Shown here: piece by piece, positions 27,401 through 48,120 of the stretch | Numbering within the stretch: position 1 is the stretch's first letter | How the letters are laid out: every line of letters starts with the position of its first letter | Assembly (NCBI GenBank): GCA_964372025.1 | Contig: CAYJPF010000002.1 | Location: 9,999-73,998, forward strand | DNA: 64,000 nucleotides | Source: an uncultured Peptococcaceae bacterium | GTDB lineage: Bacteria > Bacillota > Dehalobacteriia > UBA4068 | Direction: 5' to 3' | Program-made: the position numbers and the translations under genes | The notes under the pieces: model-generated | Seen by the model: only the letters and a program-made list of their open reading frames with translations | Told to the model about the DNA's origin: nothing | Database searches by the model: none

Positions 27401-29680
27401 TTCGATGCGGATAAAATGTATTTATATACTCCAAATTGGTTCTTCGATAAAGATGGTAATGTGGCTTATGTAGATTATGCTAATTGAGAAACACAATTTG
27501 AACAATTGTTATCTACAGATAGTAAAATTACTAGGGAAGAGTTTAAACAAATGGCTATTGAGAATAGGCTAGCTGAGATTCAGCAAGATTTAATTACTTT
27601 ACCGGGCAATACTTCAAATCTTATTGCTCCAGTGTCTTCAGATGTACTTGAGGACGCTGCTACAAAAGCAATGATAGCAGTGCATGGCGAAGATAATTAT
27701 GAGTCTTCTGCTGAATATTACAAGTCCAAATCACCGTTCTCAGCTATGACTGATCTTATTTATACTTCGGAAGTATCTGAAAATTATATGGCAGGTAAAG
27801 CTGAAGTAGGTATTACAGCATCTCAAGGTAAAATGGGAGTATACTGCTCTATCTTTGATTTAGGAGTAGTGTTATCGGAGAATGTCCCATCAAGAATAGC
27901 AGGAGTTCCCCAGGAGTCTTTGCCATTTAAAATAAATTTAGATGGAACTACTATTAAATTGGGTAATAAGTGAGATAATAGGGATAAGTATCCTATTGCT
28001 GAGATTATGAATCAGCTGATTACTATGGCGGTAGACGCTGCTAAGAGTCCTTTTGGTACTAACTTAGGAGCAGATCCTTCTACAGTAGGCATTCATACTA
28101 TGATGGCAATGGCAGGCGGAGATATGGAGCAACTAGCGTTATTTATGAATCAACCTATTATTAGGGAGTATCGTAAATTACAACAATTGCACGAGTCTCA
28201 AATGGCTCAAGAAAATTTTAGTTCCCCATTTGATCAACAGGCTGCTAATAAAGAGACTCGTTTGACTAAAGAGGGAATCGTTAAAAAATTAATGATTAAA
28301 TATGGTGCCAGCGAGAGTGGAGGTAAATTATCTGCGCCTATCACATTAAATCTAACTAATGAAAAACTATTAGACGGATTTAGCAAAGACGCTAAAGAGG
28401 CAATTAAGTATCAACCATTTATTCTGGATACATTCCTCAGATTATTAGACTACTCTAAAATTTTAGGAAAAGCTACTCAAGGAGCTACTTGGGATACGAA
28501 AGGAGGTGGCAAAACTTTATCAGAGACGCAAATTAAGCTACTTACTACTCAAGAGATTCTTGATAGTGGCGTGGTGACTAATTATGGTAAATTAGTAAAT
28601 TCTGGATACATTGCTCCATATAAAGAGGCTGCTGCAACTACGTTTAATATTTATAAAAATTTATTTGTAACATCTTCAGATGAATTACTTTCTGACTATA
28701 TTCTTAAATACGTTATGAGAAGACCTGGATCTACAGGAGACACTGTTAAACGTATGAATAAGTTAAAGAATGCAATATTAACTGCATTAGCATTAAACAC
28801 AGCTAATTCTAACGAAGTATATTTACGAGATAGACAAGAAGAATTGATGTTCGGGATCAATAATATCCCTACTTGGATTATGTCATTGAGGAATGATCCT
28901 AAATATTCAGGGAATGCATTGCTGTCACAATTAGTTCCAATACTATCTACAGGAGGAGAGTCTGATTTTAATTCTTTGAAGTTATTTGCAGACAAGGATA
29001 CTTTATCACAAAATGCTATTACGGAAGCATGGAGAGAACTACAAGTTATTTTTGGTAATAATAAAATGGATGATTTAATGGCGTTTGCCTTACTTCAATC
29101 GGGATTATCTCCTTCCCCACTAAATTTCTCAAAAATAATTCCTGCGGATAGATATTATAATATGCTTATGCCACTTATTCAGGGTGGTATAAATTCTGGT
29201 GTACATGCGGATATCCTTTATAATAATTTCGAGGTGGCAGTAGAATTAGCTTATTATAATGACCCTTTGTTTACGTCTAATCGTAAGTCTCCTATTACTA
29301 GCCTAAAGAAAGTATTTAATAAGGAGACGGGCCTCAATAATATTGTATATATGCCTCCTAAGGCGGATAATAAGCAGCCTGCTAATATATTTATTGATGC
29401 GGTGACTCATATAGATTATGCAAGAAATAAATCTTATGCATACTTTAATTATGCTCCTGGTAGTAAATTAATTGCTGCTCTAAATAAGTATAAGGAAGCC
29501 TTTGTTGAGGAAGTAAAAAGTACTCCTACGCAGGATGGCTCTACAAACAGTTCTTCTGTAGACCAAACTTCTTCTGAATTAACAGCAATTATTCAGGCGG
29601 ATCAAGTTACTTCTGAGGAGAAGGTGGAAAATAACGCACTAAATCCAGATAGCTCTATAGCTGAACAAAAATGTAAATAA
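18437..29680 (+). CDS. giant virion protein, 3747 aa; candidate virion-packaged RNA polymerase (two-barrel type)
   Basis: Six track ORFs (18437, 22151, 24653, 25661, 27506, 28007) are all in frame 2 and separated only by TGA, at 22115, 24644, 25658, 27485 and 27971. The stop is TAA at 29678-29680. It contains SDFDADKM (27398-27418), which resembles the universal beta-prime NADFDGDQM catalytic motif. There is an HEAFH zincin-like motif, and a Pro/Glu/Thr-rich linker near 20.7-20.8 kb. Confidence 0.65.
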
Positions 29681-29681
29681 T

Positions 29682-32600
29682 ATGAAATGTCCAAATGTAA
29701 AATCTACAGAGTGGAAAACTTTAGTAGATAGATTTGGAGAAAGCATTGCATGGTCGTTGTACGACGTGGTTGGGGATGTCCCCAACCTCCGTACAGCGTT
29801 ATCCATAGTAAAAGACAATGGTATCTCCTACTCTACATTATCTACAGAAAAATTACAATCATTGGGCGTGATTGATTCTTTAGGTAATATTAAAGTATTC
29901 ACTAATAAAACAAGTGTAGATAATAAAGTTGAAGAATTACGCAACTCAAATCGTAGACTACGGGTAGTGGCTAAGAAATTATCTTCTAAGGATAATTCAT
30001 ATACTATTGATGTAGCAGAGATTAAAACATCTCAAGAGATATTTAAAGCTACTCCCAAAATTAAAACTCCTACTAAATCTTCTACTATTTTAAATAGTGA
30101 AGATGCTGTAAAAGAGTTAGAAAAAACTATTGTAAAATGGTTAGATAATGTTGGAGTTAGTTATGAGAAAGTCTCTGAAATTAAAGATGCTTCTGGAAAT
30201 CCTATAAATGCCCTGGGAATAGCAGATATGCTTCAGAAAGTTATCAGGGTAGTGGAAGGTAAGGCTACAGTAGAGACGCTGTCAGAAGAGGCTGCACACA
30301 TGTTTGTGAGGATGCTGCCTAAGAATCACCCATTATATCAAAGAATGGCTAATTTAGCTGTTAATAGTGCTACTTATCAGTCTGTAAAGGATGAGTACTC
30401 TTCTATGTACGATTCTGAAGAAGCATTTGTTGAGGAGACTATAGGTAAGCTTATTGCCCAAGAGATTAGTAATGTTTGAGATAGTAACTCATCTAAATAT
30501 ATAGAGGAAACTTCTGAAGTCAAAGGGGGGGTAGCCAACCTATTTAATAGATTAGCTACTTGGTTTAATAATCTCTTGAATAAATTAGGATTATCTTCTG
30601 AGAAATTGCAAGAGCAAACTTCTCCATTTATAATGGCTGCAGATCAAATCTTATCCACTCAGACTACTGGATTAGATACTCTTAGGCAAGATGGGCAAAC
30701 TGTATTTTATAGTATGCCTCAAGATGCATTTGCCAACCGAGAGGAAATATTGGATTATCTAAATACTGTTCCTATCACATATGACTCTACTGGACAAGTA
30801 TATAGACATAATAATGGCAATGTAGTATCTAGGCGTGTCTCAGATATTCTTGATAGATTTTATAAAATTAAATTTAAATTCTTTAAAGAACGCCCTACTT
30901 CTCAGAAGAACACTTTATCTCTACATAAAGGATCTGCGATACATAAATACGCAGAGCTTATTATGAATGAGCTATTAGATGGAAATGATTCTCCGTCATA
31001 TAGTGCGATTACTTCTAAAGTATTAGTAGCATTTGATGATATAGAAGCAGGTGCAGAATCAGTGTTTAGATTAGATCCCCAACATTTTGAAATAATTGCT
31101 AACGGAGTTAAAAATATCTTTGCCGCTATTCAAAAGAATCAAGATCTTATTAATGAACAAACAGGCAATGTAGATGGAACTGTGTCTATAATGACTGAGC
31201 ACATGATTTATGATGAAAAGAGGGATTTGGCAGGAACAGTAGATGTATTGTGTGTATACTCCAATGGAACCATTGGTATATATGATTATAAGACTCATAA
31301 TTTTGTAACCAATGAGCAGGGAGAAGTACTAAGTACTATCTCACAGTCAAAAAGAGATATGTGGGGGGCACAAATTACTCAATATAAGAATATTATTACA
31401 GATTCCATTGTTAGAAATTCTAAAGCTAAAGGTAAAGTTGTTAAAGTTAGATTTGCAGAAACGCGTATGTTGCCTGTAAACATTCAATTTAACCCGTCTT
31501 TATTGAGGATAAAAGGTATGCCCTATAGTCCTGTAGGATTGGCATCATTAGAATTCCAAGATTACTCTAAAAGCTATCTTATGGATGTACCTGTAGCTGA
31601 AGAGCTTTCACACGTAGATTCTCTTAATAATAGTTTAATTAAACTATATAGTCTATTAAAAGCTCAGAAGAAAAAGTACTCACAAGAAAAAACTATAGCT
31701 AATAAAAATAAGCTTCTCCAAACTCAAAAACTCATTGATACTTATTTAGTACAAAAGGATTACTATTATTCTATAATGGAAATTAAGAATATCGACACTG
31801 AATTTCGAAAGAATGTACTTATTCATAGGGATAGTGGGGTAGGACTAACTGCGGAGAAATTAAATGATTATCGCACTCGCGTAGAAACATTGCTAGACTT
31901 TATGACTGCAATTGATACTACCATTCCTGAGGATTCTCCTGTACGCAAAGATATCCATGAAGCCGTAGGTTTGGGAGCTAGTCTTATAAACTCTATAAGT
32001 GAGAGCGCTGTGGATTTACTCAGAGAAATTACTGGCGTTGACATATCAGTAAGTGGAGAAAAGATGGGCTTTGTAGATAATGAGCTTACTGCTTTATTTG
32101 AGCAAAAAGGCCAATCTTTTAGAGCATTAAATAATTTAATCTCCGGAGTGATTAATAATACCCAAGCTGACTATAAAGAGTTTGGGGAGCAATTAACTAA
32201 ATATCACAATGAGTTATTAGAATGAGCCAAATCTAAAAATATTAATCTTCAAGATGCTTTTAATAAAATTATAGACACTTCTAGAGGATCGCTAATCAAT
32301 AGATTTAATAAAGATTTTTACGATCATCTTGCTACCATTCGAGGTAAGAAAAACTACGAGGCTGATCCGCAATTATTAAAATTATTCCAATTGACTATTA
32401 ATGCTGACACAGGATTTTATGAATATACAGATGACGCTTTAATAGACTACAATGATGCTGTTGCTAAATGGGAGAAGCAGCTAACTGATTCTACAGGAAC
32501 CCGTTTGGAGGAAGAGACTCGCACCGCTTATAAGTTATGGGATCTAGAGAATAATCCTAAATGGGCTTCAGCTCGTCTTTCTCCTAAGAATAAGTTTATG

Positions 32601-34763
32601 AGAGACAAGTATATTAGGGACGATGCTGTGATAGAGGCAGGATGAATGAATCCTGTGTATAAAGAGATTATTTCTGAGAAACCACTATTAAATTATTACA
32701 ATTTTTATGTGCGTTTTAACAGAATGGCAGAGTTACTAACGGGTTCTTCCATCTCATATAAATTTATTCCTAATATGCGCAAGACTCTTGTGGAAGGATT
32801 GCTCAACAATGGTGTGTCTGCATTTGGCAAAATGAGGTCTTTCACATTAGAAGCACTAGAGACTACTGCACAAGATGATGTGGTTTATAAGTTGAGTGAT
32901 GAGGAACAAGCACTAGATGCCCAAAATAAGCCTATTAAGAAGATTCCTGTGCATTTCGTAGACCCATTGAAAGATAGGCTCACTAAGGCAGAAGAAGAGG
33001 AAATTAAGGCCTCTATTACGGCAGAGCCTGGCAGTGCTGAATATAACGCAATATTTAATGCTAAAAAATTAGACTTAGCTAAACGTAAATTTAATGAGGA
33101 CTCTAAGTCGTACGATCTTAGTTATTTGTTAATGAAGATGGCAGAATCTGTGTACTCTTATAAACATACTAAGCAAGTAGAAGCTGCAGCACAGTTATTA
33201 TTAGCCACTGCTAAGACTGATAAAGTTAGTACTACCTTGGAGAAGAATAAAAATCCTTATATTGATGAATGGCGAGGAAGATTAAAATTCCATCTTGGAA
33301 TATCTTCAGAAGAGATTAGTGCTTTAGAAAGATCTATCAATCTCTATATCTATAAACAGCGCATTCAGAACGATACTACTTTTACAATAGGCGGCAAAGA
33401 ATATTCTACTGCTAAAGCAGTCACATCATTTATTAATTCTGCTACTATTGCTACATTAGGATTTTCCCCAATAACTGCGGCGGCAGCAGGTATTCAAAAT
33501 GCTATAAATGCTAGATTATTGGCTGTAGAGGGAAGGTACTATGATAAACAAGCTTGGAAGAAGGGCAATAAACTAAAGAAGCAAAATCCTAAAGTTTATC
33601 ATGCTTTACAAGAGTTATTAGGAGTGTCTAACATTGGATATTATCACGAAACTAGTATGCAATTTGCTGCCAATAAGATGAAAAAAATTATTTCAGGTGA
33701 TACCACTATGACTATGGTTAAAGGAGCGGATGATAGTGCGGATAGAGCCACTTTAGCAGCATTGGTACATTCTTGGGGATGAGATTCTTCAACAAATAAA
33801 ATAGTTAGTTTGCAAAAAAATCCTTCTGCTACTCCAATAGTAGACTTAATCTCTATAGATTCTAATGGAAAGCCCGTGTTAGAGGGCGTTACTCAGAAGG
33901 AGTTAAGTAGATTTAAACAGATTGTAGCCAAAGTAGGAATGGCGGTTAAAGGTACTATTCCTTCGGAATATGCTTATTTAGGAACTACTACTATAGCTGG
34001 TAGAGGATTAGCCCATTATAAATCGTGGATTCCAGGAGCTGTTAAAACTAGGTATAAAAAATTAGCGTATGACGCAGTTACAGAAGAATTTGATGACGGT
34101 AGATTACGAGTAATGTTCTCAGACTTAGTAGGAAGCACTGAGTATATGATTAAAGGATTCAGAAACGCAATTATACGGTCTTTGCCTATAATTGGTTATG
34201 TGTTCAGTGATAAACTAGGCACTAATGAAAAATACGCTCGTAAATTATATGAAGAGTATTTTGCAATGCGCCCTGATTTAAATGAAGCAGATTTTACTTT
34301 TGAGCAATTTATTGACATGCGTCTTAAAAAGTTAAAAGCTGCGGGTACTGAGATTCAATCTACTATATTATTCTTTCTAATAGCCCTAATGCTTAAAGCA
34401 ATGGCACCAGACGAAGATGAAGATGCTGTAGCAATTTTAGCTCATCAAAATCTATATAGATTACTGTATAAGAGCTATGTGGAGTTATCTTTCTTCACTA
34501 ATCCTCTTAGTATTAGTGAAATCTTAGAATCTCCCTTTCCCGCTATTAGTACTCTCAATAATATAATTCGAGCTATGAATAATACTTTAGATGAAAGTAG
34601 GGACATAGTGTTTGGAGAAGATTACAAAGGTAGTTTAATATGGGAGGAAGACAAAGACGATACCTCTCCTATAGGTAAATATTCTACAAAACTTATTCCT
34701 GGAGTAAACGCTGCTCTCGGTGTATTGGATGTATATGATACATTCTCTTATAATAATAGATAG
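29682..34763 (+). CDS. giant late protein, 1693 aa, with an internal RecB/Cas4-like PD-(D/E)XK nuclease domain
   Basis: Track ORFs 29682, 30576, 32391, 32646 and 33810 are all in frame 0 and joined across TGA at 30477, 32223, 32643 and 33780. The stop is TAG at 34761-34763. Nuclease motifs: GSAIHKYAE, MIYDEKRDLAGTVDVLCVY, IYDYKTH and GAQITQYKNI (QxxxY). Confidence 0.65.
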
Positions 34764-35878: not shown

Positions 35879-36122
35879 TATTCCAAATTAAAGTATCATC
35901 GTCTGTAAATAGCTCCACAGTTGCTTGGCAACCATTCTCCTCTACAGTAATATTTTCAGAAGATTCTATAATATAACCATTCTCTTCTTGCTCTTTAACA
36001 AAATCAAAATGAAGAAGAGCATATTCCAGCTCTTCTTTAGGTTTATTTAGAAAATCTTCTGGGAGAAGATCTTCGTCAATATGGTACCTATACCATATAG
36101 TTTGTTTAATATCTACATACAT
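35868..36122 (-). CDS. small acidic hypothetical protein
   Basis: 84-aa ORF with ATG 36120-36122 and TAA 35868-35870. Confidence 0.45.
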   Translation of the reverse strand: MYVDIKQTIWYRYHIDEDLLPEDFLNKPKEELEYALLHFDFVKEQEENGYIIESSENITVEENGCQATVELFTDDDTLIWNNER

Positions 36123-36712
36123 TTTATTATACCTTGTTTAATCATAATTTCTGTCACAGAATGAGCTAGCTCTCCTATAGACCCATTATTATTAATCACA
36201 TAATCCCAGTCTGAATAATCGTCTAATTCAATCTCGGAATCATGTGTATCAGTGGAAGTAGAGTTTCTATTGAGTCGAATCAAGATGCCGCCCCTTTGTT
36301 TAATTGCATCAGCTTCATTCTTATACCTAACATCTGTAATTATCCAATTTTGATGCTTATAATCATGAAATAATTTATTGATCCAATAACTTTCTCCAAA
36401 TGTTTTCCTTCCAAAAGTTCCTACTTTTTGCAACACTTCTCGAATTGTTATTTTTTCCTCAGCATACTTCACTTTCATAGCTTTTGTTGCCTCAAATTCA
36501 AATAATTCTATGGGAATCCCTGTGTATAGAGACGCAATTTCCTTAACTCCTTGGGCAAATGATTTGGGAGTAAAGGAGCCATTCGGAGAACTCGATCCTC
36601 GACCTTCTAATAAGGCTTCTAAACCATAATTTCGTTCCGCATCAATGGTGTTCCATATAGTTGCAACTGTGTTTTTACCAGACTGCTTTTTACCTGATAT
36701 TCCTACTAACAT
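36113..36712 (-). CDS. deoxynucleoside monophosphate kinase-like P-loop kinase
   Basis: Walker A GISGKKQSGKNT. Architecture resembles T4 gp1 dNMP kinase (…FGESYWINKLF…ITDVRYKNE…). Confidence 0.55.
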   Translation of the reverse strand: MLVGISGKKQSGKNTVATIWNTIDAERNYGLEALLEGRGSSSPNGSFTPKSFAQGVKEIASLYTGIPIELFEFEATKAMKVKYAEEKITIREVLQKVGTFGRKTFGESYWINKLFHDYKHQNWIITDVRYKNEADAIKQRGGILIRLNRNSTSTDTHDSEIELDDYSDWDYVINNNGSIGELAHSVTEIMIKQGIIKCM

Positions 36713-36724
36713 AATAAATTTATT

Positions 36725-38755
36725 TTAATGTACCCAATGGTCACTAATATTAGCCGACGCATCAAGGGGCACATGTCTGCAAAAAACCTTTCCTGAATTT
36801 CTCATACACTCGATTATTTTGTCTGCTACAACTTGCGCTAAGTGTTCGGGACATTCAACGTTTATTTCATCGTGCACCGGTACAGTATACTTAACAATAA
36901 ATTGTAGAGAATTATCTAATATTCATTTATAGAATGCAATTGAAGCCCTTTTAAAACATACTGCACCTCTCCCTTGTATCCTATAATTAATAGATTGCTT
37001 TTCTAATTCGGAGCGACGTTTAAAATACTGTTTGGCTACTTGTATTTCGTAAGTATATTCCTCGGCTGCTTTAGCTGCCTTATACTTATCCCAAAATCCA
37101 GGGGTATTCATTGTTCGTTTATAATTTTGTAATTCCTCAAAATCATACACAAAGGTTTTATGTCCATATTCTGGGCTATGCTCAATATAACCAAGTTCCA
37201 TTACTTCTTTTCTGCACTGTTTTTGGTAATTAGCCACCCCTTTAAATTTATTTAAATAACTATTGTAAGTCTCTTTAGCTTTGATAGGGTCATAGCCATA
37301 GGTTGTGACCAAAGTCATATCATTGCCGCCATAATTAAATAAAAATTCTGGACCCTTAGCCGCATTACGAAGATGTGGATAAAGTTTTTTAATATCCTTG
37401 ACCTCCACTGATTCTAATTCATCTGGATAAATAGCTTTTGCTACTAGGGAGTGCATATCCCCTGATCCATGTAAAAATTCCTCAATCATTTCGGAGTCAT
37501 TTGCCACATTTGCTATCAAAACAGACTCTTGTCCACAATAATCTACTGATACCCAAGAATTCCCTCCTTCGGAAATGAAGCAGCTCCTAGTTGCGGCATC
37601 GCTTGGGATATTCTGAAGATTGGGAATGGAATATCCCGTATCTTTATCTTTGCCTCCACCACTAGATAGTCTGCTTGTATCCATTAGCTGTGTAAAATTA
37701 GTGTGAATACGTCTAGACACAGGATTGATCGCATCTATAAAGTTTTGGCCATAAGTATTACAAACTTTTTCCCACTTTTTGTAAGTAAGGTACAAAGGAG
37801 CTACTGGAGATAACTCTTTTTGTGGCTTAATAACCTTAGCATCAACAGACTTTTTAAGTTGCTTAGTCTTTTTATCTAGAACGGATAAATTAAAACCAAG
37901 ATATTCAAATAAAGGTATAACTTGTTTAGAGCTTCCCCAATTAATTAAACATTCTGCTTCTTTAATATGAGTATCAAATAAAGACTGTTGAACGCACTTA
38001 TTTACAAACTTACTCTCACTTGAAAGCTCCGAAATAACCCAATTATTCAAGGCTTTCTCTGCATTAGTAAATTCTAAATAGTCCTCGAACATCTTAGCCT
38101 TTCACTTATTTACATCGAGTTTTACTCCACAATATTCAATATATGCCAACACTGCTACAAACTTATTCTCTAAACACACCGCATTAAAAAGCCGTTTCTT
38201 CATTACTTCTTTATGCTGTGCATGCATAATAGGAACCAAGTATTTAACATCTTCACAAGCATACACTAAGCCTTGAGTAGTTATTCCGCCAGTTTTAAAT
38301 TGTTCTCGAATACTCTTATTCAATTTAATTTTTAGATATTGCATACATATAGCATCTAAACTCAGCTTTTTAAGTCCTGGAGGGTATCCCAAATACAGCA
38401 GTTTTTCAACTAAATAGGTATCCCATACATACTTAACTGTAATTTTATGATGTAATAACCATTTCAAATCAAATTTAGCATTTTGCAATACCCATGTATA
38501 TCTGTCGTCTTCTAAGAATGGTTTAAGAAGATTAATATCTATGGTAGAGTCTAATACATATTGATTATATTCATCCCCAAATTGAATTAATAATAATCTT
38601 TTTGTGTATGGATCCAATCCACTTGTCTCAGTGTCTAAGCCAATATACTCATGATTAGCAAAATAAGTAAACATGTCTTGTAATGTACATCTAGTGGAAA
38701 TAGTATTATCTTCTTCAATAAGTAATTGCGGACAATTGGATATATAGTATCTCAT
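36725..38755 (-). CDS. polA: family A DNA polymerase (3'-5' exo + polymerase domains), ~676 aa, read through two in-frame TGA codons
   Basis: Exo I IGLDTETSGL, Exo II QNAKFDLKWL and Exo III YACEDVKYL, then TGA (38102-38104). Next come motif A VSVDYCGQESVL, motif B LRNAAKGPEFLFNYGG and IQGRGAV, then TGA (36923-36925). Motif C VPVHDEINVE follows, and the C-terminus …NLVDHWVH ends at TAA 36725-36727. The second TGA aligns with the Trp of E. coli Pol I …AVDAWLQ. Confidence 0.85.
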
Positions 38756-39033
38756 TATATCACTAAATAATACTGGCCATTATCAATATCTGATATGATT
38801 TTTTGCACCATAAAAGTACATAATCTCCCTTCTTCATCTTTGCATTTTATTCCTTCTCCCTCAAAAAAATAAGGAGCAGAATCTATAGAAAGGCCTAGTG
38901 CCCCATCAAACCTAATGTGGGAAGAAACTTTTTTAGTTACAGTTGCTTTTAAGACTTTTATAGTACTGGGATGTGTTAATGGAAGCAGTTCTTTTAATAT
39001 AATTTTAAATTTTTTACCATAATTATACTTCAT
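38755..39033 (-). CDS. hypothetical protein (92 aa)
   Basis: ORF with a TAA stop. Its start overlaps the upstream stop. Confidence 0.45.
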   Translation of the reverse strand: MKYNYGKKFKIILKELLPLTHPSTIKVLKATVTKKVSSHIRFDGALGLSIDSAPYFFEGEGIKCKDEEGRLCTFMVQKIISDIDNGQYYLVI

Positions 39034-39481
39034 GATAAATCTTTTTAGTTTTAAAATCCAATACCATTGAATTTTTTTCTAGGAATGGTGCTCCTAGAAT
39101 TCCTTGGACGATAAATCCATATTTATTAGTATACTGTTGGACATTAGACATACTTGATACTTTAAAAGTTTCTCTAAAAGATTTCCCAAATAATCTAATA
39201 GAAGCCCTAATTTGTGTAGCCACCACAGCGCCTTCTCCACATGTTACCAATGTGTCTGCTGCAGAATCTTCTATATAACTACCGTTAGACAAAGACTCTT
39301 TAAAAGTTTCATCTATAACATTTATAGTGGCGCCAGTATCAACTAAGAAATATACTCATTTATGATCTATCTTTATTTTGATAAAGGGCGCCCCTGATTT
39401 GAGGCGCTCTTTAAACGATATTGATCGTTTTTTAATAAGTTTTTCGCATAATTTATTTTTTAGGTTTATAAAATAATTCAT
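39023..39481 (-). CDS. retropepsin-like aspartic protease (~152 aa; one in-frame TGA at 39356)
   Basis: Extending the track ORF 39023-39292 upstream in frame gives MNYFIN…HK[TGA]VYFLVDTGATINVIDE…GFIVQGILGAPFLEKNSMVLDF. The DTGA active-site motif and the ILG…FL flap/dimer motif resemble HIV PR and Ddi1-like proteases. Start is ATG 39479-39481. Confidence 0.55.
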
Positions 39482-39490
39482 TACATTTAA

Positions 39491-42400
39491 TTATTGCAAC
39501 AATAATGTTGCACATAAAGAAGTTCCACAAGATTTACAAATCTTACAGCCTCCTTCCGAATGTAGTTTTTCACCACATTCTGGACAAGTAGCATGAGTTT
39601 CTTTCTCATACTTAGATAGTATTCTACAAATAGCGGAGGTAAAAGAAGTTACTAATGGATTAATTTTCTCATTAGTTTTAATAATTTCTTTTACGGGTGC
39701 GCCATGGCGTAATAGCATAGAAGTTAGTATAGAACTCATTCGCTCCTCATTCAATTCATTTGCCAATTGCAAATTAGGGATGACTAAGCCTGATTCTCCA
39801 ATAAATTTATAATGTCCTTTCTTTAACTTAATTACTTTCCCCGGACCCTCTGCAATAGGGTCTTCTCCTAATTTAAACGCAAATGTTTCGTATGGACGCC
39901 CTGCGTACAATCCCACAACTAATGCATAAGGGACTTTTTTAATAGACACTAAATGCAAATTGGCTTGTAATTCTTTAGGACGTTTTGGCGGCAATGACTC
40001 TTTAAAATCAGCGGGCTTATCTTCTTTAGTGACTAAGATTCCTGACCGCGACCCTTCTCTGTACACAGTAACCCCCTTTAGATTATGCTCCCAAGCCTTC
40101 ATATAAATAGTACTAATCTCCTCTACAGTAGTGCTTTCCGGTAAATTTATAGTACTGGAGATACTATGTGTTGTTCCCGATTGAACCGCTGATTGGGAGA
40201 TAATTCTATCAATAGGACGTATCTCTGGAGCAGTATTACCATAATAAACACTTTCTTTTACTATTTCATCTAATTCTTTAGTGGCCATCGAAGATAATTG
40301 AGCATACGCCTCTGCAATTGATAATTGTCGCTTAACTGCGTACTCTTTAATAACTCCCGGATGGATGACATTAAATTCTACAAAGGGTTCTCCATTAGGA
40401 TCTATATATGTAGGAATATCATCTGAACTAGCACGCTTTCGTCTAGTGTAATATAAGGAAAATACGGGTTCTATACCCGAAGAACATTGGGCGAGCAAAC
40501 TAATTGTTCCTGTTGGAGCTACTGTAGAAAAACTAATATTACGACGGGCTGAATCTACTGACCCCGGGCTTGTCCCAGTTATTAGACTGATGTGTCCTCG
40601 ATTTTCGTAATCAGGGTTGAACGCGGGAAATACTCCTCGCTCTTTACCTAATTTTTTAGATTCTTCGTACTCTGCCTTAAACTTATTTGTAGAAATTTCG
40701 TCCATTAGCATAACAGCTACTTCTGAACCATATTTTATACCTAATTGAGCAAACATATCTGCCCATCCTGTAGTACCTATACCACATCTACGCCCTTGTT
40801 GCGCAGTTTTCCGTACCTTTATCCATAGTTCGTGCTCTTTAGTCTTCTCCTCCACATTGGCGATAATAGTATCAATCGCTTCTATCTCAAGATCTATAAA
40901 ATTATCAGCTAATCGCATAGCTTTTGCACACAGAGCCATAAACTTCGTCATATTAAAAGATGCTTCCGAAGTATATGGAGCACTTACGCAATTACTTAGA
41001 TTAATATGTAATAATCTACATGCATCGTAAGGAGATAAGGGAATTTCTCCGCAATTATGCGCCACCATATTATTTACAATTAAACAATTGGTTCCCGGTA
41101 CTTGAATATCATATACATCGGTTTGTTCACCTTCCTCGATAGCAACTATTGCATTTTCAAATCTATTTTTAAATTTAGTAGCTAGATGCTCTGGAAGAGA
41201 ACTTGTATTTTTCCATGCAGGGGGATTGCCATTCGGAATAAATTTACCCTGCTCATCTCTACATTGATGTGTTTGAGGATTTTGAGTAGTAGCCGTAACA
41301 TAAGAATGTTCAGAGTGAGAAATACTTGAAAGGTTATTTATATTATTATTAAAAGTATCTCCATCTAAATGGTGTATATCCATATTAATAATATTTCCAT
41401 GAACTGCTTCGTACACTAACCTATGCTCCATCACATACTCTCTGTTCCCCTCAGTAGTTAATTTCACTCCTGCATAACGTCTTCCTCTACGACTGCGTAA
41501 AATATGAGCAATCCTATCACCTAATACTAAATTTCTAGCTTCGATAAATCCTTTGTTATGCACATACATTTTATGATCAGGAGTAACAGTAATACTCTCT
41601 CCTGTTCGTAATGTGATTTTTAAAGTTTTAGCATTCTTTTTAGTTAAAAATGCAGCGGAGGATTTTACTACGCATAATTTATTATTAGCATCCATGCTAT
41701 ACACATACGTAGGTTTTGTAATGTCAGCTATTCTTATCCTGCCCTCCACTGTCTCTACCAATGAGTCCGGGTGAAAGCAGGGATTAGTCGAGATCGGCCT
41801 AAATTCGGGATAGTTCCCATCCAAAGAATTTTCTAAAATAGTGTTCCAAAATAAAATCCCGGGCTCTGCGGAAGCATGTGCTGCTTGCATCATCTTATTC
41901 CAGATTTCTTGGGGATTTACTTTTTTAATATAAAAATGAGTAGAGGTGTTCGGTTGAATTAGCTCTACCCCCTCTTTATAATACTCATCGTACAATTTTT
42001 TTAGTTGTTCTTGGTCATACGTAGACGTAGTAGGAAATTTGAGATAATACTCAGTATTACCGTATTTAACAGCTTCCATAAATTCGTCAGACACCTTTAC
42101 TGAAATATTTGCACCAGTTATCTTAGATAAATCTTGTTTACTTAGGATAAACTCTAATATATCAGGATGATTGCCGTCCATAGTAATCATCAATGCTCCT
42201 CTACGTCCGTCTTGCGCAACTTCTTTTGTGCATGCAGAATCTACTTCCATGAATGAAGTAGCTCCAGAAGAAGTTTTTGCCACATTATTAACTTTTGAGC
42301 CCCTTGGGCGAAGGTGAGAAATATCTTTTCCAACGCCACCGCGTCGCTTCATAAGCTGTATTTGCTCTTCTCTACTACGCATGATTGCCTCGTAAGAATC

Positions 42401-42694
42401 CTTATTATCGCCAATTACAAAGCAGTTGCTCAACGATCCTATATGCTCAGTATTTCCTATTCCGGCTAATCCAGATCCTCCCGGAATAATATATTTAAAA
42501 TCTTTTAAAAGATTATAGATATCTTCCTCTGATAACTCGGGAGATGGATAAGATTGCTCAATTCTAGCGAATTCTTTTGCAATCCTTTTGTGCATATCAT
42601 CTGGAGTAATATCCGTAGATAATGCGTATTTTTCTGACCACACCTTAGCAGCCATTTCGTCGCCATGAAAATAAGACAATAATTTAGAATTCAT
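39491..42694 (-). CDS. nrdJ: class II (B12-dependent) ribonucleotide reductase NrdJ, interrupted by an intein
   Basis: MNSKLLSYFHGDEMAAKVW start. The extein motif STNPC|GEIPLSPYDACRLLHINL is split by the intein. There is a C-terminal Cys-rich Zn-ribbon. No TGA occurs in ~1067 codons. The track start at 42793 adds a spurious 33 aa. Confidence 0.85.
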   Translation of the reverse strand: MNSKLLSYFHGDEMAAKVWSEKYALSTDITPDDMHKRIAKEFARIEQSYPSPELSEEDIYNLLKDFKYIIPGGSGLAGIGNTEHIGSLSNCFVIGDNKDSYEAIMRSREEQIQLMKRRGGVGKDISHLRPRGSKVNNVAKTSSGATSFMEVDSACTKEVAQDGRRGALMITMDGNHPDILEFILSKQDLSKITGANISVKVSDEFMEAVKYGNTEYYLKFPTTSTYDQEQLKKLYDEYYKEGVELIQPNTSTHFYIKKVNPQEIWNKMMQAAHASAEPGILFWNTILENSLDGNYPEFRPISTNPCFHPDSLVETVEGRIRIADITKPTYVYSMDANNKLCVVKSSAAFLTKKNAKTLKITLRTGESITVTPDHKMYVHNKGFIEARNLVLGDRIAHILRSRRGRRYAGVKLTTEGNREYVMEHRLVYEAVHGNIINMDIHHLDGDTFNNNINNLSSISHSEHSYVTATTQNPQTHQCRDEQGKFIPNGNPPAWKNTSSLPEHLATKFKNRFENAIVAIEEGEQTDVYDIQVPGTNCLIVNNMVAHNCGEIPLSPYDACRLLHINLSNCVSAPYTSEASFNMTKFMALCAKAMRLADNFIDLEIEAIDTIIANVEEKTKEHELWIKVRKTAQQGRRCGIGTTGWADMFAQLGIKYGSEVAVMLMDEISTNKFKAEYEESKKLGKERGVFPAFNPDYENRGHISLITGTSPGSVDSARRNISFSTVAPTGTISLLAQCSSGIEPVFSLYYTRRKRASSDDIPTYIDPNGEPFVEFNVIHPGVIKEYAVKRQLSIAEAYAQLSSMATKELDEIVKESVYYGNTAPEIRPIDRIISQSAVQSGTTHSISSTINLPESTTVEEISTIYMKAWEHNLKGVTVYREGSRSGILVTKEDKPADFKESLPPKRPKELQANLHLVSIKKVPYALVVGLYAGRPYETFAFKLGEDPIAEGPGKVIKLKKGHYKFIGESGLVIPNLQLANELNEERMSSILTSMLLRHGAPVKEIIKTNEKINPLVTSFTSAICRILSKYEKETHATCPECGEKLHSEGGCKICKSCGTSLCATLLLQ
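41054..41779 (-). mobile_element. intein (242 aa) with an HNH endonuclease domain, inserted at the RNR catalytic NPC|GEI site
   Basis: Begins with Cys (CFHPDSLVETVEG…) and ends …NNMVAHN, followed by the +1 Cys. The internal HNH motif is HHLDGDTFNNNINNL…SHSEH. Confidence 0.8.
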
Positions 42695-43739
42695 GTAGTA
42701 ACTTTTTAATGTCGATCTCTCGCTCCCCTTTACAAGTAAACGTAGTTCGAGAGTAGGTAAATATGTCATTATCAAAATGCCATTTAGCATCATCTAATAA
42801 CATCTTTCAGTCTTTAAATCCGTGCTCTAAAAGCATTTGTTCGTTAGGATCAGTTATATTAAGCCCGTCTATTTGTAATGGATATTTCCATATAATAGGA
42901 GTTCTTGTAAATTTATTAATTACAATAAATTTAAATGGCAAAATAGTAAAATCTTTGTAATACTCATCACTAGAAAGTATATGTGCTAATATATATGTAT
43001 ACATATTCGCCTGAATATAATAATTCCAATGTAACACAGAGTCTTCAAATTTTTCCTCGGCCTTTCCAGTAGTCTTTAGATCAATAGGCTGAACAGTTTT
43101 GTTGTAATGATCCACAATAATTCTATCGAACATACATCTAATTAATGTCCCGTTATAATCTAGACTAAATTTTAACTGATTTAATCCTTCGGAATCATCG
43201 TCCAACTCGGTGAAATATTTTTTAGTAAACTCCGAATTAAATAATGTTTCAACGCAGGCTTTTGCTACGTCAAACTCTTCTTTAGAAATTAGCGTCTTAT
43301 CTTTAGTTTGTTGAAGTAGGTGGAAATAATGACTATGCTCAGCTAATTTTGATAACTTAGTAGCGTCTCTTCATGTAGGGCCATAATTAAATTCTACGCA
43401 TGCTTCCAGCTTAATTTCGTCTGGTAAAAATGTAAAAGATTTTACATCTGAGTACAAGGTAAATAAGTATTGTATGATTTTAGAAATTGCTGGAGGAGGC
43501 ATTACAAAAGATTGTATAAAAAATCTTTCGTCCAATAGCTCTGGCTCTGTCACTAGGCAATCTACTAAGGACCCAAATCTAAGTGCGTCCGACTCTTCTA
43601 TTTTAGAAGAAATAAGGCATTTTGGAGTGCCCTCCCTTAGAAAAGAGGACAACGTAGAATAAGAAAATCCTCCTAACTGCCTATATTCTGATTCCGTAAT
43701 AGGTAGACTAATCTTCTGTAGTGACTTCTTCATAACCAT
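42684..43739 (-). CDS. PD-(D/E)XK family nuclease (RecB/YqaJ-like exonuclease), ~351 aa, TGA at 43371 and 42807
   Basis: Track ORFs 43371-43739 and 42807-43205 are in one frame and joined across TGA. The motifs are …GSLVDC… and PIDLKTTGK, the D…(D/E)xK pattern. Ends at TAA 42684-42686, overlapping the RNR start. Confidence 0.55.
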
Positions 43740-44409
43740 TCAATTGTAAATAATCCAAAAGGGTTGTTTTTGCTATAGTTAGGAGTCTAAATTCTTCTAA
43801 CATATTATTCTTAATACCTTCTTCTACATCAGCTTGTATCGCTTGCTCCAATTTAAGTAGAGCAGCAGTATATATCTCTAAAATTTTTTCTAATTCCCTG
43901 TTATCCCACCATTCTAAAAACTTTTTATAGTCTTTTTCTGAAAATAATGAGCGAATAGAATCTAATATTTGGATTTTATACTTCATATTATTTAAAATAA
44001 TAACAGATTGTTGCACCTGTTTAACAGTATGGGGCTCGAAAAATAAATACTTAATCCCCATAGATTCTAGATGATGTAAAAATAACTTCCTTTTTACGGG
44101 ATATACATCATTAGCTTTTCCCTTAACTTCAAAAATAATTAATCATTCCCCTAAGTAAAAAGTAAAATCAGGAGTATAGGTCATACTTCTAATATTTACT
44201 ATAGGGGAAATTATTTTAGTTTTATTGTTGGGAATAAATGCATACCCTCTACCTAAAAAAAATTTAGGTAAGAGGGTAGCCTTATACTGTTCATAAAGAG
44301 GGGTGAATCCCGCTTCTAATAATAATCTATAGCACGTAGCTTCTAGCTTACTTTTGAAAATTATATTATTATACTGGGTGCTCGTGGCATTTTTTACTTT
44401 TTTATTCAT
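43708..44409 (-). CDS. DUF1064/VRR-NUC-like PD-(D/E)XK endonuclease (putative resolvase-type), TGA at 44143
   Basis: Track ORFs 44143-44409 and 43708-44061 share a frame and are joined by TGA. Motifs: FKSKLEATCYRLLLEAGF…YTPDFTFY…IFEVKG. TAG stop. Confidence 0.5.
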
Positions 44410-45874
44410 TAATTAATAAATTGTGTAGAAAAGTGATTTTACTATCCTCTTCTTGATCGATTCTTCCCCAAGTATCATTGTATTCGCATTCAGAATACCT
44501 ACGCATAAATTTACGCAAAATACAGTAAGAAATCATTTTTTCGGCTAAATCTTTTGAATACACTTTATTAAAAATGTATTCTAATATTCCGCCAGAAGAT
44601 GCTTTTGAGACAAGTGTGGCGATAGAATCTGTAGTAGTGCTAGCATATTTTAAAATAGCGTTACACAAGAACATCCAATACACGATCTTCTGATAATTAG
44701 TAGATGGTCCGTGAATTCTAAATTCTACTGTCTTGCCCGCGGGCTTAAACATTAGGTTTAATAGGTTTGCCCACATATACCGATACTCCATATTCCATTT
44801 CTGGCGGTCATTAGGATCGCCTGGATGAGCTTTTGTTAAGTCATCCTCGAAATTTAATGCTCCTCCTGAATAGTTTTTATACAGTTGTTCAAAGGAGGAG
44901 AATTTAGGCAATGGATTTGTGTAATTTTTTCTCTTAGCCTTATATTCAGCAGTTCTTGTAGCGAGTCGCGGCAAAATATCGAAAACACTAGATTGTATAT
45001 TATATAAAATATTATATAATTTAAAAATCTTAGTTTTGTCAATAGGAAATCCTCCCAAATGAACGTGAACAGAGCATTCTTTGTTGAATCGAGTTTTTTC
45101 GGATAATACTCGAAGTTGTTCATGGAGAAGTTTAAAGCCTTCTTCTCCAGCCATGGGTACAGTTGCATACTCAATTCCTTCTATAGACCCATCTCGTAAA
45201 GGAATCAGTCCTAATTCAAAACATTGTTGTTCTGGGATCACTCCCGCACAAGTCTCAAATTCAAGGCCAAAAGTAAATTCCCCAAATTCTGCTACTTCAG
45301 AACTATTAAGGGCTAGGTCTGGATAAACTTTGGGAAAATCCATAAACGCCTTTAGATGAGGGCCGCTAGAATACATTTGCTCTATTGAATAATTGTATTT
45401 TCCCGGCTTGATGAAGGACTCTTGAAGAGCCATAAAATGGGCATCCTCTTTAGGAATATTAGCACATTGTCTCCAAATGCGCTCATCTGGAAATTCTACC
45501 AAGTCTGGAATCATTTCTAAGACTTTTGCATTTGGAACGAATGTATTAATTTCGTATGTTCCTAGATAATAATTTAGATGCACTCTGATGGGGGAGTGGT
45601 CCTGTACCGCAAATCTTCCGTAGACATAAGAGCCTTCCTTCATTCCTATAATTCCGAAAACCAATTGTTTACTACCACGGAGTTTATAACTAGAATCAAC
45701 GTCGTCGAAAAAAATTCGTCTATCCCCCTTAACATACCAGTCTTTTTCTACAAGTACTGCGTCTACTTCTTTTAGGAAATAGGCTCCATTAATGAGTACA
45801 CAATCAATGGCTGGAGCAATGACTCCTGTATTTGTAATAATTGTTTTAATTTTTTGCATCATGTTCACTCTCAT
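44402..45874 (-). CDS. glutamine-synthetase-fold carboxylate-amine ligase (Amidoligase_2-like), 490 aa
   Basis: Motifs FGLEFE…(E-rich)…SVHVHLGG, typical of the amidoligase/GCS2 family. No TGA. Confidence 0.5.
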   Translation of the reverse strand: MRVNMMQKIKTIITNTGVIAPAIDCVLINGAYFLKEVDAVLVEKDWYVKGDRRIFFDDVDSSYKLRGSKQLVFGIIGMKEGSYVYGRFAVQDHSPIRVHLNYYLGTYEINTFVPNAKVLEMIPDLVEFPDERIWRQCANIPKEDAHFMALQESFIKPGKYNYSIEQMYSSGPHLKAFMDFPKVYPDLALNSSEVAEFGEFTFGLEFETCAGVIPEQQCFELGLIPLRDGSIEGIEYATVPMAGEEGFKLLHEQLRVLSEKTRFNKECSVHVHLGGFPIDKTKIFKLYNILYNIQSSVFDILPRLATRTAEYKAKRKNYTNPLPKFSSFEQLYKNYSGGALNFEDDLTKAHPGDPNDRQKWNMEYRYMWANLLNLMFKPAGKTVEFRIHGPSTNYQKIVYWMFLCNAILKYASTTTDSIATLVSKASSGGILEYIFNKVYSKDLAEKMISYCILRKFMRRYSECEYNDTWGRIDQEEDSKITFLHNLLINE

Positions 45875-47321
45875 TTGATATTAACCATTCAATAATACCC
45901 TTAGCAGTCAATTCTAATTCTTCCTTTGTTACCGCTACCGACTCTGACGCAACTGCCTGCTGGGTTTTTTCACATCTTGAGCATACAGAATCTTCTGTGT
46001 AAGTAGTAGGTTTTCCGTCTCTAATTTTGTAATATCTATTTTTAGTGTAAAAATAAACGTGTAGTACACCAGATCCTGGCTCTCCCTCCCCATTTTCCCA
46101 CAATTTAGTAAGTTCATTATAATATAAATCTTCACTTAGGCAGCGGATAGCTTTCCATAATGGGAATGTGGGATATGAAGATTCAATTACTTGCTCTATT
46201 GCACAAAGTAAGTTATAAGAATATTCATCAGTCAGTCGATGCCCCTTAAAGAAGAAGAAGGGCTTTGCCTCACTAGTTTTAGTTTGCGGAGAGTATCCAT
46301 AAGGAGTAATGAAATGTCTTCCAGACAGCCATTCTCCCATCATTTTATACTTACCGCCCTCCATCACAACTTTTCGAGAGGTAGCTCCATGAGATTGATC
46401 CGAGAGGGGAGTTAATACTGTAATGGCTCCATAAGTAACAGTTGATTTGTAGGAAGACTGTTTAGAATAGTTAGAAGTAGGATAATCATCATAATCAGAA
46501 TATCCATAATTGCCACCATAATTTGATCTATAGGGCGTTACTGCAGCACTTTTATGTTGATGGTTTTCAGAACGATCGTATACCACTGTCTTAGGATTTT
46601 CCCAAGTTTTACAATAGGAAAATAAAGTATTATGCTCTATATCAATTAGATCTTTAGAACTAAGTTGAATGAGTCCTAAGGACTCCTTAATAGAAGAAAA
46701 CCAAAATCCATTAGGAGTATTCACCATATAAAGAGGGCGTTCTTCCGTAGTCACTGTGGATGATTGATAAGATTTAGATTTTCCCTTAAATATAGAAATT
46801 ATTGGGGAAACTTGTCTATAATCTACAAAAACAAATGCTCCGGCTCCTTGATACTCTGTGAGCACATCAAAGCCTTGATAATATACAACATGTGCAAAAA
46901 TCTGAGAGTCTGTAAAGTCTGCAGGAACATTACGTAGGTACTTTTCACTCAATTCCGTGTAATTTACCAACGTACCGTTATGAATCATTACAAACTCTAC
47001 TTTGCCCTCTGCGTTAGTGATTACCACTGGCTGAGCTTGGTCCACAGTTAATTTCCCTACAGAAGCTTTTCTACAATGCCCTAATGCGACTTGCACTGTA
47101 GAGTCGTTAATATTTCTTACAAAAGAAGACGTCTCTGTGGTAACAAAATCTGCAAAAAGTTTAGTTGCCCCAATACCGTATTCATAATTTCCGTCGATGA
47201 ATGCTCCCGCACTGTCTCCACCACGTTTGTCATTGATAGATCCTAGTACTGCGTACTTTACTTTAGAAAAATCACTTTTTCTTGAAGGCGAGGTTTGGAT
47301 GTATCCAAAAATTCCACACAT
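45846..47321 (-). CDS. class II glutamine amidotransferase (Ntn hydrolase, N-terminal Cys) fused to an unknown C-terminal domain
   Basis: Starts MCGIFGY with the catalytic Cys2, which is the classic GATase type 2 pattern. The remaining ~240 aa are unassigned and carry a CSRCEK Cys pair. Confidence 0.7.
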   Translation of the reverse strand: MCGIFGYIQTSPSRKSDFSKVKYAVLGSINDKRGGDSAGAFIDGNYEYGIGATKLFADFVTTETSSFVRNINDSTVQVALGHCRKASVGKLTVDQAQPVVITNAEGKVEFVMIHNGTLVNYTELSEKYLRNVPADFTDSQIFAHVVYYQGFDVLTEYQGAGAFVFVDYRQVSPIISIFKGKSKSYQSSTVTTEERPLYMVNTPNGFWFSSIKESLGLIQLSSKDLIDIEHNTLFSYCKTWENPKTVVYDRSENHQHKSAAVTPYRSNYGGNYGYSDYDDYPTSNYSKQSSYKSTVTYGAITVLTPLSDQSHGATSRKVVMEGGKYKMMGEWLSGRHFITPYGYSPQTKTSEAKPFFFFKGHRLTDEYSYNLLCAIEQVIESSYPTFPLWKAIRCLSEDLYYNELTKLWENGEGEPGSGVLHVYFYTKNRYYKIRDGKPTTYTEDSVCSRCEKTQQAVASESVAVTKEELELTAKGIIEWLISNESEHDAKN

Positions 47322-47322
47322 A

Positions 47323-48120
47323 TTAAAGAATATTATATTTGTTAATTAATTTTTTAGCCAAGTCTGTATTATTAGTATTAATACATTCCATAATTGCATC
47401 CATATCTGCTTGAGGAGTCTTACCCTCATTTATGAAAGCTATTGCCTTCATTGTTTGTCGGTATACCCAACGTAGTGTTTCCTCACTGGTGATGAAATAT
47501 CCAGACAAAGTGCGATATTCGCATCCATAGGCAGTCATTCTAAAACAACCCGCTTTTCCATATAGTTTCCTACGTTCATTATCGTTGTCCATCAATATTG
47601 ATGGGACTCCTAGAAATAGGTCTAGAGTTTTAATAATGAGCAACGAAGTGGTTAGGTTATGATCGTCGTACCCCACGTGAATATGGCATCCTGTTGTTCG
47701 GAGATTAGTTGCTGCTCCTTCTGGAGTAGGATTTTCTGCCTCTAGCCAAGCGTTGAAATCTGGTTCGCAGCCAAACATCTTAGCTTCATCGGATTGAAGC
47801 TGATCTTCGTCAATAAAAGCACTTCCTTGACATAGTATATCTAATTTAGAGTCTTTAGATTTCACAAAATCTCTGATCCATTCTTTCATCGTCAACATGT
47901 TATTAACGAAATCGTCCTCGTTGTCTACAGGGGGAATATTGTACTCTGCAAGAATATTATCAATTTGCAATCCAAATCCACTGGGCATATTTTCAGGATG
48001 ATATGCATCCCCTTTTTGTCCCGGGATTAGTCCTATAGAAGAAACTACCTTATCAGTAGTTGTATTAACGATAAAAAGTTCTGGATCAGAACCAATTGTG
48101 ATGTTTTTTAATTTGCTCAT
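47323..48120 (-). CDS. second glutamine-synthetase-fold carboxylate-amine ligase (Amidoligase_2/GCS2-like), 265 aa
   Basis: IGSDPELFI near the N-terminus and GCHIHVGY in the middle, the GxExE / HxH pattern of this family. Confidence 0.5.
   Translation of the reverse strand: MSKLKNITIGSDPELFIVNTTTDKVVSSIGLIPGQKGDAYHPENMPSGFGLQIDNILAEYNIPPVDNEDDFVNNMLTMKEWIRDFVKSKDSKLDILCQGSAFIDEDQLQSDEAKMFGCEPDFNAWLEAENPTPEGAATNLRTTGCHIHVGYDDHNLTTSLLIIKTLDLFLGVPSILMDNDNERRKLYGKAGCFRMTAYGCEYRTLSGYFITSEETLRWVYRQTMKAIAFINEGKTPQADMDAIMECINTNNTDLAKKLINKYNIL

Follow-up and report, generated by a model that had tools for sequence, protein, structure and literature searches.

Genomic context of a recoded protease gene

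The 64-kb stretch of DNA analyzed here, referred to throughout as the window, carries on its minus strand a replication block that includes a short gene for a putative retropepsin-like aspartic protease. The structural genes lie on the opposite strand, and the plus strand contains giant open reading frames (ORFs) of 1885, 3747 and 1693 aa. As in the phages crAss001 and cr108_1, the replication genes follow the order ribonucleotide reductase (RNR), protease, family A DNA polymerase (PolA), ThyX, dNMP kinase, PD-(D/E)XK exonuclease and DUF1064 endonuclease. The protease gene, its neighbors and the segments of its product that are relevant to the following analysis are located at these window positions:

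39491-42793, minus strand: class II (B12-type) RNR with an HNH-intein insertion, the upstream neighbor; in relatives, a dUTPase gene intervenes
39023-39481, minus strand: retropepsin-like aspartic protease gene (predicted), 152 codons plus TAA stop when translated with TGA as Trp
39422-39481, minus strand: basic, hydrophilic N-terminus (residues 1-20) in place of the transmembrane (TM)-like segment of homologues
39413-39421, minus strand: I21-S22-F23 (ISF) β-strand; S22 is invariant and the strand is present in the model of a homologue
39356-39358, minus strand: in-frame TGA, codon 42, read as Trp (mostly Lys in homologues), at the start of the strand leading into DTG
39329-39340, minus strand: catalytic motif D48-T49-G50-A51 (DTGA); D, T and G are invariant among 121 aligned family members
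39197-39265, minus strand: long β-hairpin (putative flap), residues ~73-95, with a conserved Gly (G84)
39092-39103, minus strand: G127-I128-L129-G130 (GILG), followed by the C-terminal helix; invariant at G127 and almost invariant at L129 and G130
38755-39033, minus strand: ORF of 92 aa overlapping the protease stop by 11 nt, in the slot of the small crAss001 gp65-like ORF
36725-38755, minus strand: PolA, 676 aa, with two TGA=Trp codons, the conserved downstream neighbor

With TGA translated as a sense codon, the protease gene runs from an ATG at 39479-39481 through 41 codons, the single TGA and a further 110 codons to a TAA at 39023-39025, giving 152 sense codons with no frameshift or additional stop. 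The translation reads MNYFINLK...IDHK[TGA]VYFLVDTGATINVIDE...GFIVQGILGAPFLEKN...IYHEV[TAA] or, in parts, MNYFINLKNKLCEKLIKKRSISFKERLKSGAPFIKIKIDHK-[TGA]-VYFLVDTGATINVIDE...GFIVQGILGAPFLEKNSMVLDFKTKKIYHEV. The original prediction of a 152-aa protein that emerges after read-through of one TGA, situated between the RNR and DNA polymerase genes, is thus borne out, with the addition that the 92-aa ORF intervenes on the PolA side. On the other side, the RNR gene ends with a stop codon 10 nt ahead of the protease ATG. The 92-aa ORF has no Pfam or NCBIfam matches, and hhalign detected no relationship to the gp65-like (‘muconolactone isomerase’) family whose position it occupies (probability 0.6%).

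A distant blastn search with positions 36000-43000 matched crAss-like phages only, the best match being the uncultured phage cr108_1 (Steigviridae, Pipoluvirus) with ~66% nucleotide identity over 31% of the query. The window derives from a crAss-like gut phage close to Steigviridae.

TGA is a tryptophan codon across the window

The whole window tiles back-to-back into ORFs only if TGA is treated as sense, and 50 of the 50 tiled ORFs then end at TAA or TAG. In-frame TGAs occur twice in PolA and nine, five and four times in the giant ORFs of 1885, 3747 and 1693 aa, respectively. Where such codons were aligned to standard-code relatives, they mostly coincided with conserved Trp residues: PolA position 218 is W in 80 of 82 homologues, exonuclease position 311 in 28 of 32 and both ThyX sites in four of four, while aromatic residues predominate in two further TGA columns and Leu in a third (DUF1064 position 89). 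The tiling and the conserved Trp columns together indicate that the phage uses a TGA=Trp code, a recoding documented in beta-, delta- and zeta-group crAss-like phages (PMC7886860). No tRNA gene, and hence no suppressor tRNA, was found within the 64-kb window, so a suppressor, if phage-encoded, would be located outside these 64 kb.

The protease is therefore intact because the phage decodes TGA as Trp, and its TGA represents ordinary genome-wide recoding, neither a defect nor a special read-through event. Codon 42 itself falls at a position that is variable by alignment, with Lys in 73 of 87 homologues, and Trp at this site is uninformative either way. The sole identical database entry is an 89-aa fragment (P0001) produced by standard-code gene calling, which illustrates how TGA=Trp recoding can hide such genes.

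Sequence motifs and profile matches of the protease

Residues 45-51 of the window protein, FLVDTGA, fit the retropepsin pattern hydrophobic-hydrophobic-D-T/S-G-A/S. The second motif, GILG, follows DTGA at a distance of 79 residues (counted between residues 48-51 and 127-130); the original prediction had named both motifs correctly but placed them about 75 residues apart. Its reading of ILG as a flap signature did not hold, as this segment is the hydrophobic-hydrophobic-Gly motif found just ahead of the C-terminal helix and corresponds to I84-I85-G86 of HIV protease (PR). The flap would instead be formed by the predicted long hairpin upstream of GILG. By its position, the ISF strand near the N-terminus may match the N-terminal strand of retroviral proteases (residues 1-4 in HIV PR) that contributes to the dimer interface.

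To assess conservation, we started a profile search from the window protein and seven of its phage homologues. This search retrieved 431 proteins of ~165 aa, many of them on contigs of ~100 kb, and 120 of these were aligned with the window protein. Across the resulting 121 sequences, S22, P32, D48, T49, G50, G127, F133 and F143 are invariant. Conservation of DTG in orthologues, on which the original prediction depended, is thus complete in this set. Position 126, just before GILG, is Gln in the window protein versus a nearly invariant His in the family.

Searched as a single sequence against Pfam, the window protein scored 24.6 bits for RVP (PF00077; cut-off 20.7), 24.5 bits for Asp_protease_2 (PF13650), marginally above the cut-off of 24.3, and 25.3 bits for gag-asp_proteas, below the cut-off of 28.2, with E values of about 2-5e-5. 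It consequently passes both of the Pfam models, RVP and Asp_protease_2, proposed earlier as a check. The margin of these single-sequence scores over the cut-offs is small. At the family level, 120 of the 121 members individually matched Asp_protease_2, and the family profile retrieved FIV, EIAV and HIV proteases from the PDB sequences (E 5e-7 to 1e-3, the best value being that for FIV PR), in addition to ASPRV1 and ApRick. These sequence data go beyond a chance resemblance and support assignment of the window protein to the single-domain, clan AA retropepsin-like aspartic proteases.

We also considered whether the invariant Pro32, within ‘L-P-V-I-T’, might mark an autoprocessing site analogous to the HIV ‘F/PQIT’ site. 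This reading was rejected on the alignment because, by HMM alignment, Pro32 corresponds to a Pro inside the crystallized FIV protease chain (chain residue 11) and, by its spacing from the catalytic Asp, to HIV Pro9 and not Pro1.

Predicted fold

AlphaFold2 was applied to residues 43-152 of the window protein and to the full-length homologue P0095. The fragment model reached a pLDDT of 81.8, with the lowest values (about 60) at the start of the flap, residues about 73-82. Foldseek returned as best matches to this model the RVP domains of Ddi1 proteins (Leishmania, Toxoplasma, human DDI2 and yeast) and EIAV PR, with a probability of 1.00, and the AlphaFold models resemble the Ddi1, EIAV, HIV and Rickettsia APRc proteases. 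They exhibit the elements that characterize a retropepsin, namely a β-barrel half-domain, a flap hairpin and a C-terminal helix after the Gly motif, and all conserved fold elements, including the ISF strand, are present in the window protein. An aspartic-protease fold, the absence of which would have spoken against the original prediction, is accordingly what the models predict.

A Steigviridae protease family with conserved synteny

Using tblastn with the window protein against 50,697 phage records, we obtained 22 matches (E 8e-10 to 9e-3, 25-31% identity), all of them from Steigviridae-type crAss-like phages and Dulem virus 41. Repeating the search with crAss001 gp66 (AXQ62709.1) as query yielded 49 records, adding DAC15, DAC17, cr106_1, cr126_1, cr128_1 and bajarodcaudo virus 1, and none of the 49 came from other crAss families. 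Most records carry the label ‘aspartyl protease’, and that of Dulem virus 41 reads ‘retropepsin-like protein’. Annotated homologues in syntenic positions occur in crAss001 (gp66), IAS virus, cr85_1, cr116_1 and Kolpuevirus. The gene is no peculiarity of this one phage: an ‘aspartyl protease’ family is annotated across Steigviridae, and the window gene is best described, on its sequence, as a divergent member of this already annotated family and not as a new kind of system.

The gp66 family, comprising crAss001 gp66 and its counterparts in IAS virus, cr85_1, cr106_1, cr112_1, cr116_1, cr126_1, cr128_1, DAC15/17, Kolpuevirus and Dulem virus 41, is homologous to the window protein over ~85% of its length (tblastn E 8e-10 to 2e-3, 25-31% identity), and the alignment spans the entire catalytic domain. 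Shared features are the motifs D-T/S-G-A/S and G-I/L-L-G, a catalytic domain of equal length and a location within the replication block, ahead of the DNA polymerase. The window protein is about equally distant (26-31% identity) from each relative compared. It differs from the family by its recoded TGA, by Gln in place of the His before GILG and, as detailed below, by the lack of an N-terminal TM-like helix (present in 116 of 120) and of a preceding dUTPase (present in 79 of 80).

In annotated genomes, the gene order is dUTPase, protease, an optional small ‘muconolactone isomerase’ ORF and DNA polymerase I. This arrangement recurs in 80 IMG/VR loci, of which 79 have a dUTPase as direct upstream neighbor, 75 have PolA as direct downstream neighbor and 55 carry the small ORF between protease and PolA. 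Loci lacking PolA (L034 type) contain a different ORF of 591 aa without Pfam match after the protease, and the ORFs occupying the PolA place in Dulem virus 41 are annotated ‘polymerase/primase’. These loci were found with the profile; an IMG/VR search with the single window protein gave no close relatives, and PHROGs holds no family for the window protein or for four relatives. A literature search for crAss001 gp66 or its aspartyl protease returned nothing, and no protease is mentioned in the crAss001 genome paper, the structural atlas (PMC10172136) or the Yutin 2021 comparative paper. The gp66 family is thus annotated but experimentally unstudied.

The window copy lacks a membrane anchor and a dUTPase neighbor

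A hydrophobic, TM-like segment of ~20 residues is present at the N-terminus of 116 of the 120 aligned homologues. The maximum 19-residue Kyte-Doolittle mean exceeds 1.6 in these 116 versus 0.08 in the window protein. On average, 0.09 Lys and Arg residues precede the TM segment and 3.66 fall within the 15 residues that follow, a pattern shared by 115 of the 116, and by the positive-inside rule this distribution suggests an N-out/C-in anchor with a cytoplasmic protease domain. In about 94% of relatives, a single TM helix is accordingly predicted to hold the catalytic domain on the cytoplasmic face of the inner membrane.

The N-terminus of the window protein, with a net charge of +7 in its first 30 residues, aligns with the juxtamembrane linker of these relatives, and without an anchor the window protease should be soluble. 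Natural anchor-less relatives, of 146-147 aa, exist at loci L020, L056, L083 and L084. An amphipathic helix replacing the anchor was considered and rejected: the hydrophobic moment of residues 2-19 is 0.253, compared with 0.266 for shuffled sequences. The conserved upstream gene is likewise missing, as no dUTPase was detected between RNR and protease or anywhere else in the 64-kb window. With both anchor and dUTPase neighbor lost, the role of the window copy might differ from the family norm.

Relationship to retropepsins outside phages

Retroviral proteases (MEROPS A2; HIV-1, FIV and EIAV PR) share the DTGA and hydrophobic-hydrophobic-Gly motifs with the phage protein. Unlike these enzymes, the phage protease is encoded by a double-stranded DNA tailed phage and lies outside any Gag-Pol polyprotein, and flanking cleavage sites are therefore not expected. 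It also has additional helices, located behind DTG and ahead of the GILG strand, as well as one more strand at the C-terminus. Compared with Ddi1/DDI2, to which it shows 14-20% identity, the window protein lacks the UBL, HDD and UBA domains, and a search for a second Pfam domain in its 152 aa found none.

Bacterial retropepsins, which comprise Rickettsia APRc/ApRick (5c9b/5c9f), TIGR02281/TIGR03698, Lpg0085/PA0462 (DUF785) and SpoIIGA, are single domains that are either stand-alone or tethered. APRc and SpoIIGA combine a membrane tether with a soluble catalytic domain, and the phage family resembles them in this architecture. It has one TM helix versus several in the bacterial retropepsins, and the window copy has none. 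NCBIfam scores of the window protein were 14-20 bits overall, with 20.4 bits for TIGR02281 and 19.1 bits for TIGR03698 against cut-offs of 57.95 and 57.35, respectively, which places it, by profile score, outside these subfamilies. The closest cellular relatives found were exported Asp_protease_2-PDZ proteins of Bacteroidota (a 440-aa protein of Flavobacterium antarcticum and B. fragilis 9iy9). In these exported proteins, a signal peptide, a second domain and a PDZ domain at the C-terminus accompany the protease domain, whereas the phage protein consists of the protease domain alone and is predicted to stay in the cytoplasm.

Proposed function and alternatives

We propose that the gene probably encodes a functional, homodimeric, site-specific endopeptidase that acts on a protein of the host or phage in the replication phase of infection. 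Dimerization is expected by analogy with all single-domain retropepsins and from the conserved N-terminal ISF strand and the C-terminal strands, which would join the two subunits. Both subunits would supply an Asp (D48 of DTGA) to a common active site beneath the β-hairpin flap. In crAss001, the replication and nucleotide-metabolism block consists of middle genes, expressed at 10-30 min and ahead of the late structural genes (PMC8375218). Because the window gene is situated just ahead of the DNA polymerase gene and overlaps its nearest downstream neighbor, co-expression with the replication genes is probable, and the protease would be made as a middle gene together with enzymes of replication and nucleotide metabolism. 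It would then act in the cytoplasm, close to the membrane in most relatives and as a soluble enzyme in the case of the window copy, and such limited proteolysis at specific sites, directed at one or a few proteins of the host or phage, would serve regulation or takeover.

A more specific version of this proposal, which we consider doubtful, is that the Steigviridae retropepsin, as a dedicated and normally membrane-tethered enzyme, is functionally coupled to phage DNA replication and clears or processes proteins at a membrane-associated replisome, or else cleaves a protein of the host or of an incoming phage at the inner membrane for takeover or superinfection exclusion. In either case, it would be the first aspartic protease from a tailed phage with a defined function, and the window copy, TGA-recoded and anchor-less, would be a natural soluble variant. 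The occurrence of a predicted retropepsin beside the DNA polymerase across one whole crAss family offers a clear catalytic hypothesis. Pepstatin and HIV-protease drugs are available as candidate inhibitors, and crAss001 gp66 provides a cultured model. Beyond the existing GenBank label, our data add the near-universal dUTPase-protease-polymerase order, the anchor of most members, predicted to keep the domain in the cytoplasm, and the exported Bacteroidota protease-PDZ proteins as the closest cellular relatives found.

Among functions that differ from this replication-phase endopeptidase, counter-defense, superinfection exclusion or another envelope-directed activity, with the protease acting on a membrane-associated or defense protein of the host, is unlikely. 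It would be in keeping with an anchor conserved in about 94% of relatives and with exported Bacteroidota Asp_protease_2-PDZ proteins (PDB 9iy9) as the closest cellular relatives found, and both the window protein (E 8e-6) and P0095 (E 1e-7) match the PADLOC candidate defense component PDC-M08B over their full length. This match may, however, reflect the shared fold alone; moreover, the predicted topology points to the cytoplasm and not the periplasm, the window copy and a few others have no anchor, and adjoining defense or anti-defense genes were not identified.

We regard as quite unlikely a Ddi1-like, replication-coupled protease that removes DNA-stuck proteins or stalled replisome components. 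Such a role would account for the constant position beside the DNA polymerase (75 of 80 loci have PolA downstream of the protease), but adjacency within a tightly packed operon is weak functional evidence, and the structural similarity to retroviral proteases and APRc is as strong as that to Ddi1. Most relatives are predicted to be membrane-anchored, and the Ddi1-like shuttling raised in the original prediction conflicts with the nature of the 152-aa window protein as a bare protease domain devoid of UBL, HDD and UBA domains.

Processing of giant virion proteins, also raised there, or of the capsid would make the enzyme a virion maturation protease, with RNA polymerase subunits and cargo as possible substrates. 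The giant ORFs in the window would provide candidate targets, and no other protease was seen in the examined part of the window. Known tailed-phage prohead proteases are serine or herpesvirus-assemblin-type enzymes encoded beside portal and capsid genes, and the window protein, which has a predicted aspartic fold and lies outside the head-morphogenesis module, differs from this class in both fold and location. Its gene belongs to the replication block on the strand opposite to the structural genes, and transcription of this block in crAss001 precedes that of the late structural genes (PMC8375218). In addition, giant virion proteins are common to all crAss-like phages (PMC8375218) but the protease family was found only in Steigviridae-type records of the phage collection (49 records), and the crAss001 structural atlas (PMC10172136) mentions neither a protease nor cleavage or proteolysis. 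Module, timing, family range and the lack of processing reported for the crAss001 virion thus render a maturation role very unlikely.

Most improbable of all is a pseudogene or non-catalytic remnant, with TGA acting as a true stop and splitting the product into pieces of 41 and 89 aa, or with the fold retained for some purpose other than proteolysis: the 89-aa fragment as sole database entry (P0001) under standard-code calling, the lost anchor and dUTPase neighbor and the lack of a suppressor tRNA within the 64-kb window would fit this scenario, but TGA is also sense in the essential PolA, ThyX and exonuclease genes and in the giant virion ORFs, aligning with conserved Trp, the family-invariant catalytic and structural motifs are intact on both sides of the protease TGA, and the reading frame is otherwise uninterrupted. 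Use of the recoded codon varies along the window: in the plus-strand (late) block 30% of Trp codons are TGA, compared with 12-15% in the minus-strand blocks.

Gene neighbourhood of the protease

The surroundings of the protease gene (window 39023-39481, minus strand) depart from those of its relatives. Of 80 related loci, 79 have a dUTPase gene ahead of the protease; here it is absent at window 39482-39490, and tblastn found no dUTPase anywhere in the window. Instead, the class II ribonucleotide reductase (RNR) directly adjoins the protease. Downstream, a 92-aa ORF (window 38755-39033, minus strand), overlapping the protease stop by 11 nt, occupies the slot of the gp65-like small ORF of the relatives; no similarity to the gp65-like family or to Pfam or NCBIfam models was detectable for this ORF.

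In a subset of relatives, the ORF following the protease is not the family A DNA polymerase PolA but a 591-aa ORF without a Pfam match, as in locus L034 and also in L059, L064 and L068. The stretches concerned include:

L034 5441-7216, 591-aa ORF following the protease
L003 4389-7274, likewise at the place after the protease

In Dulem virus 41, ORFs in the same place after the protease are annotated ‘polymerase/primase’. Because other ORFs replace PolA after the protease in some relatives, the protease keeps its position despite a differing polymerase gene.

Intein in the RNR and nearby ligase genes

The adjoining RNR (window 39491-42793, minus strand) contains an intein with an HNH endonuclease and measures 1,100 aa, compared to 858 aa in crAss001. 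A Hint match was also present, in addition to two Pfam matches:

RNR residues 353-580, Intein_splicing
RNR residues 457-497, HNH_3

A few kilobases from the protease, three adjoining genes (window 44402-48120, minus strand) encode an Amidoligase_2 protein, a class II glutamine amidotransferase and a phiEco32-like COOH-NH2 ligase, a combination suggestive of a set for joining peptides or metabolites. One account from Pseudomonas (PMC11957791) describes ribosome modification regulated by a retropepsin-like protease together with the ligase RimK.

TGA recoding across the window

Reading of TGA as Trp extends across the window, and late genes are not its sole carriers. In-frame TGA codons include the following:

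7189-12846, plus strand, nine
18437-29680, plus strand, five
29682-34763, plus strand, four
36725-38755, minus strand, two, in PolA

Per 1,000 codons, TGA occurs 3.3 times in the plus-strand structural block versus 1.8-2.0 times in the minus-strand blocks. No tRNA gene was detected in the 64-kb window; a suppressor, if phage encoded, would therefore lie outside it. All 50 tiled ORFs in the window terminate in TAA or TAG.

Cellular relative, defence-profile match and contig provenance

Flavobacterium antarcticum DSM 19726 encodes a 440-aa cellular protein (locus L093, 2307-3629) comprising a signal peptide, an Asp_protease_2 domain and a PDZ domain. The ‘LNFLLDTG’ core is common to this protein and the phage protease family. 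A host lineage is a possible source of the phage domain, through a protein of this type. The PADLOC candidate-defence profile PDC-M08B (~127 positions) gives a full-length match to the protease; the window protein reaches E = 8e-6 and the full-length homologue P0095 E = 1e-7.

Six contigs (L089-L092, L094 and L095), three of them 88-111 kb long, carry the dUTPase-protease-PolA order typical of crAss-like phages and were deposited within metagenome-assembled genomes labelled Acholeplasmatales, Bacilli and Clostridium. These placements probably reflect misbinning, not the identity of the host.
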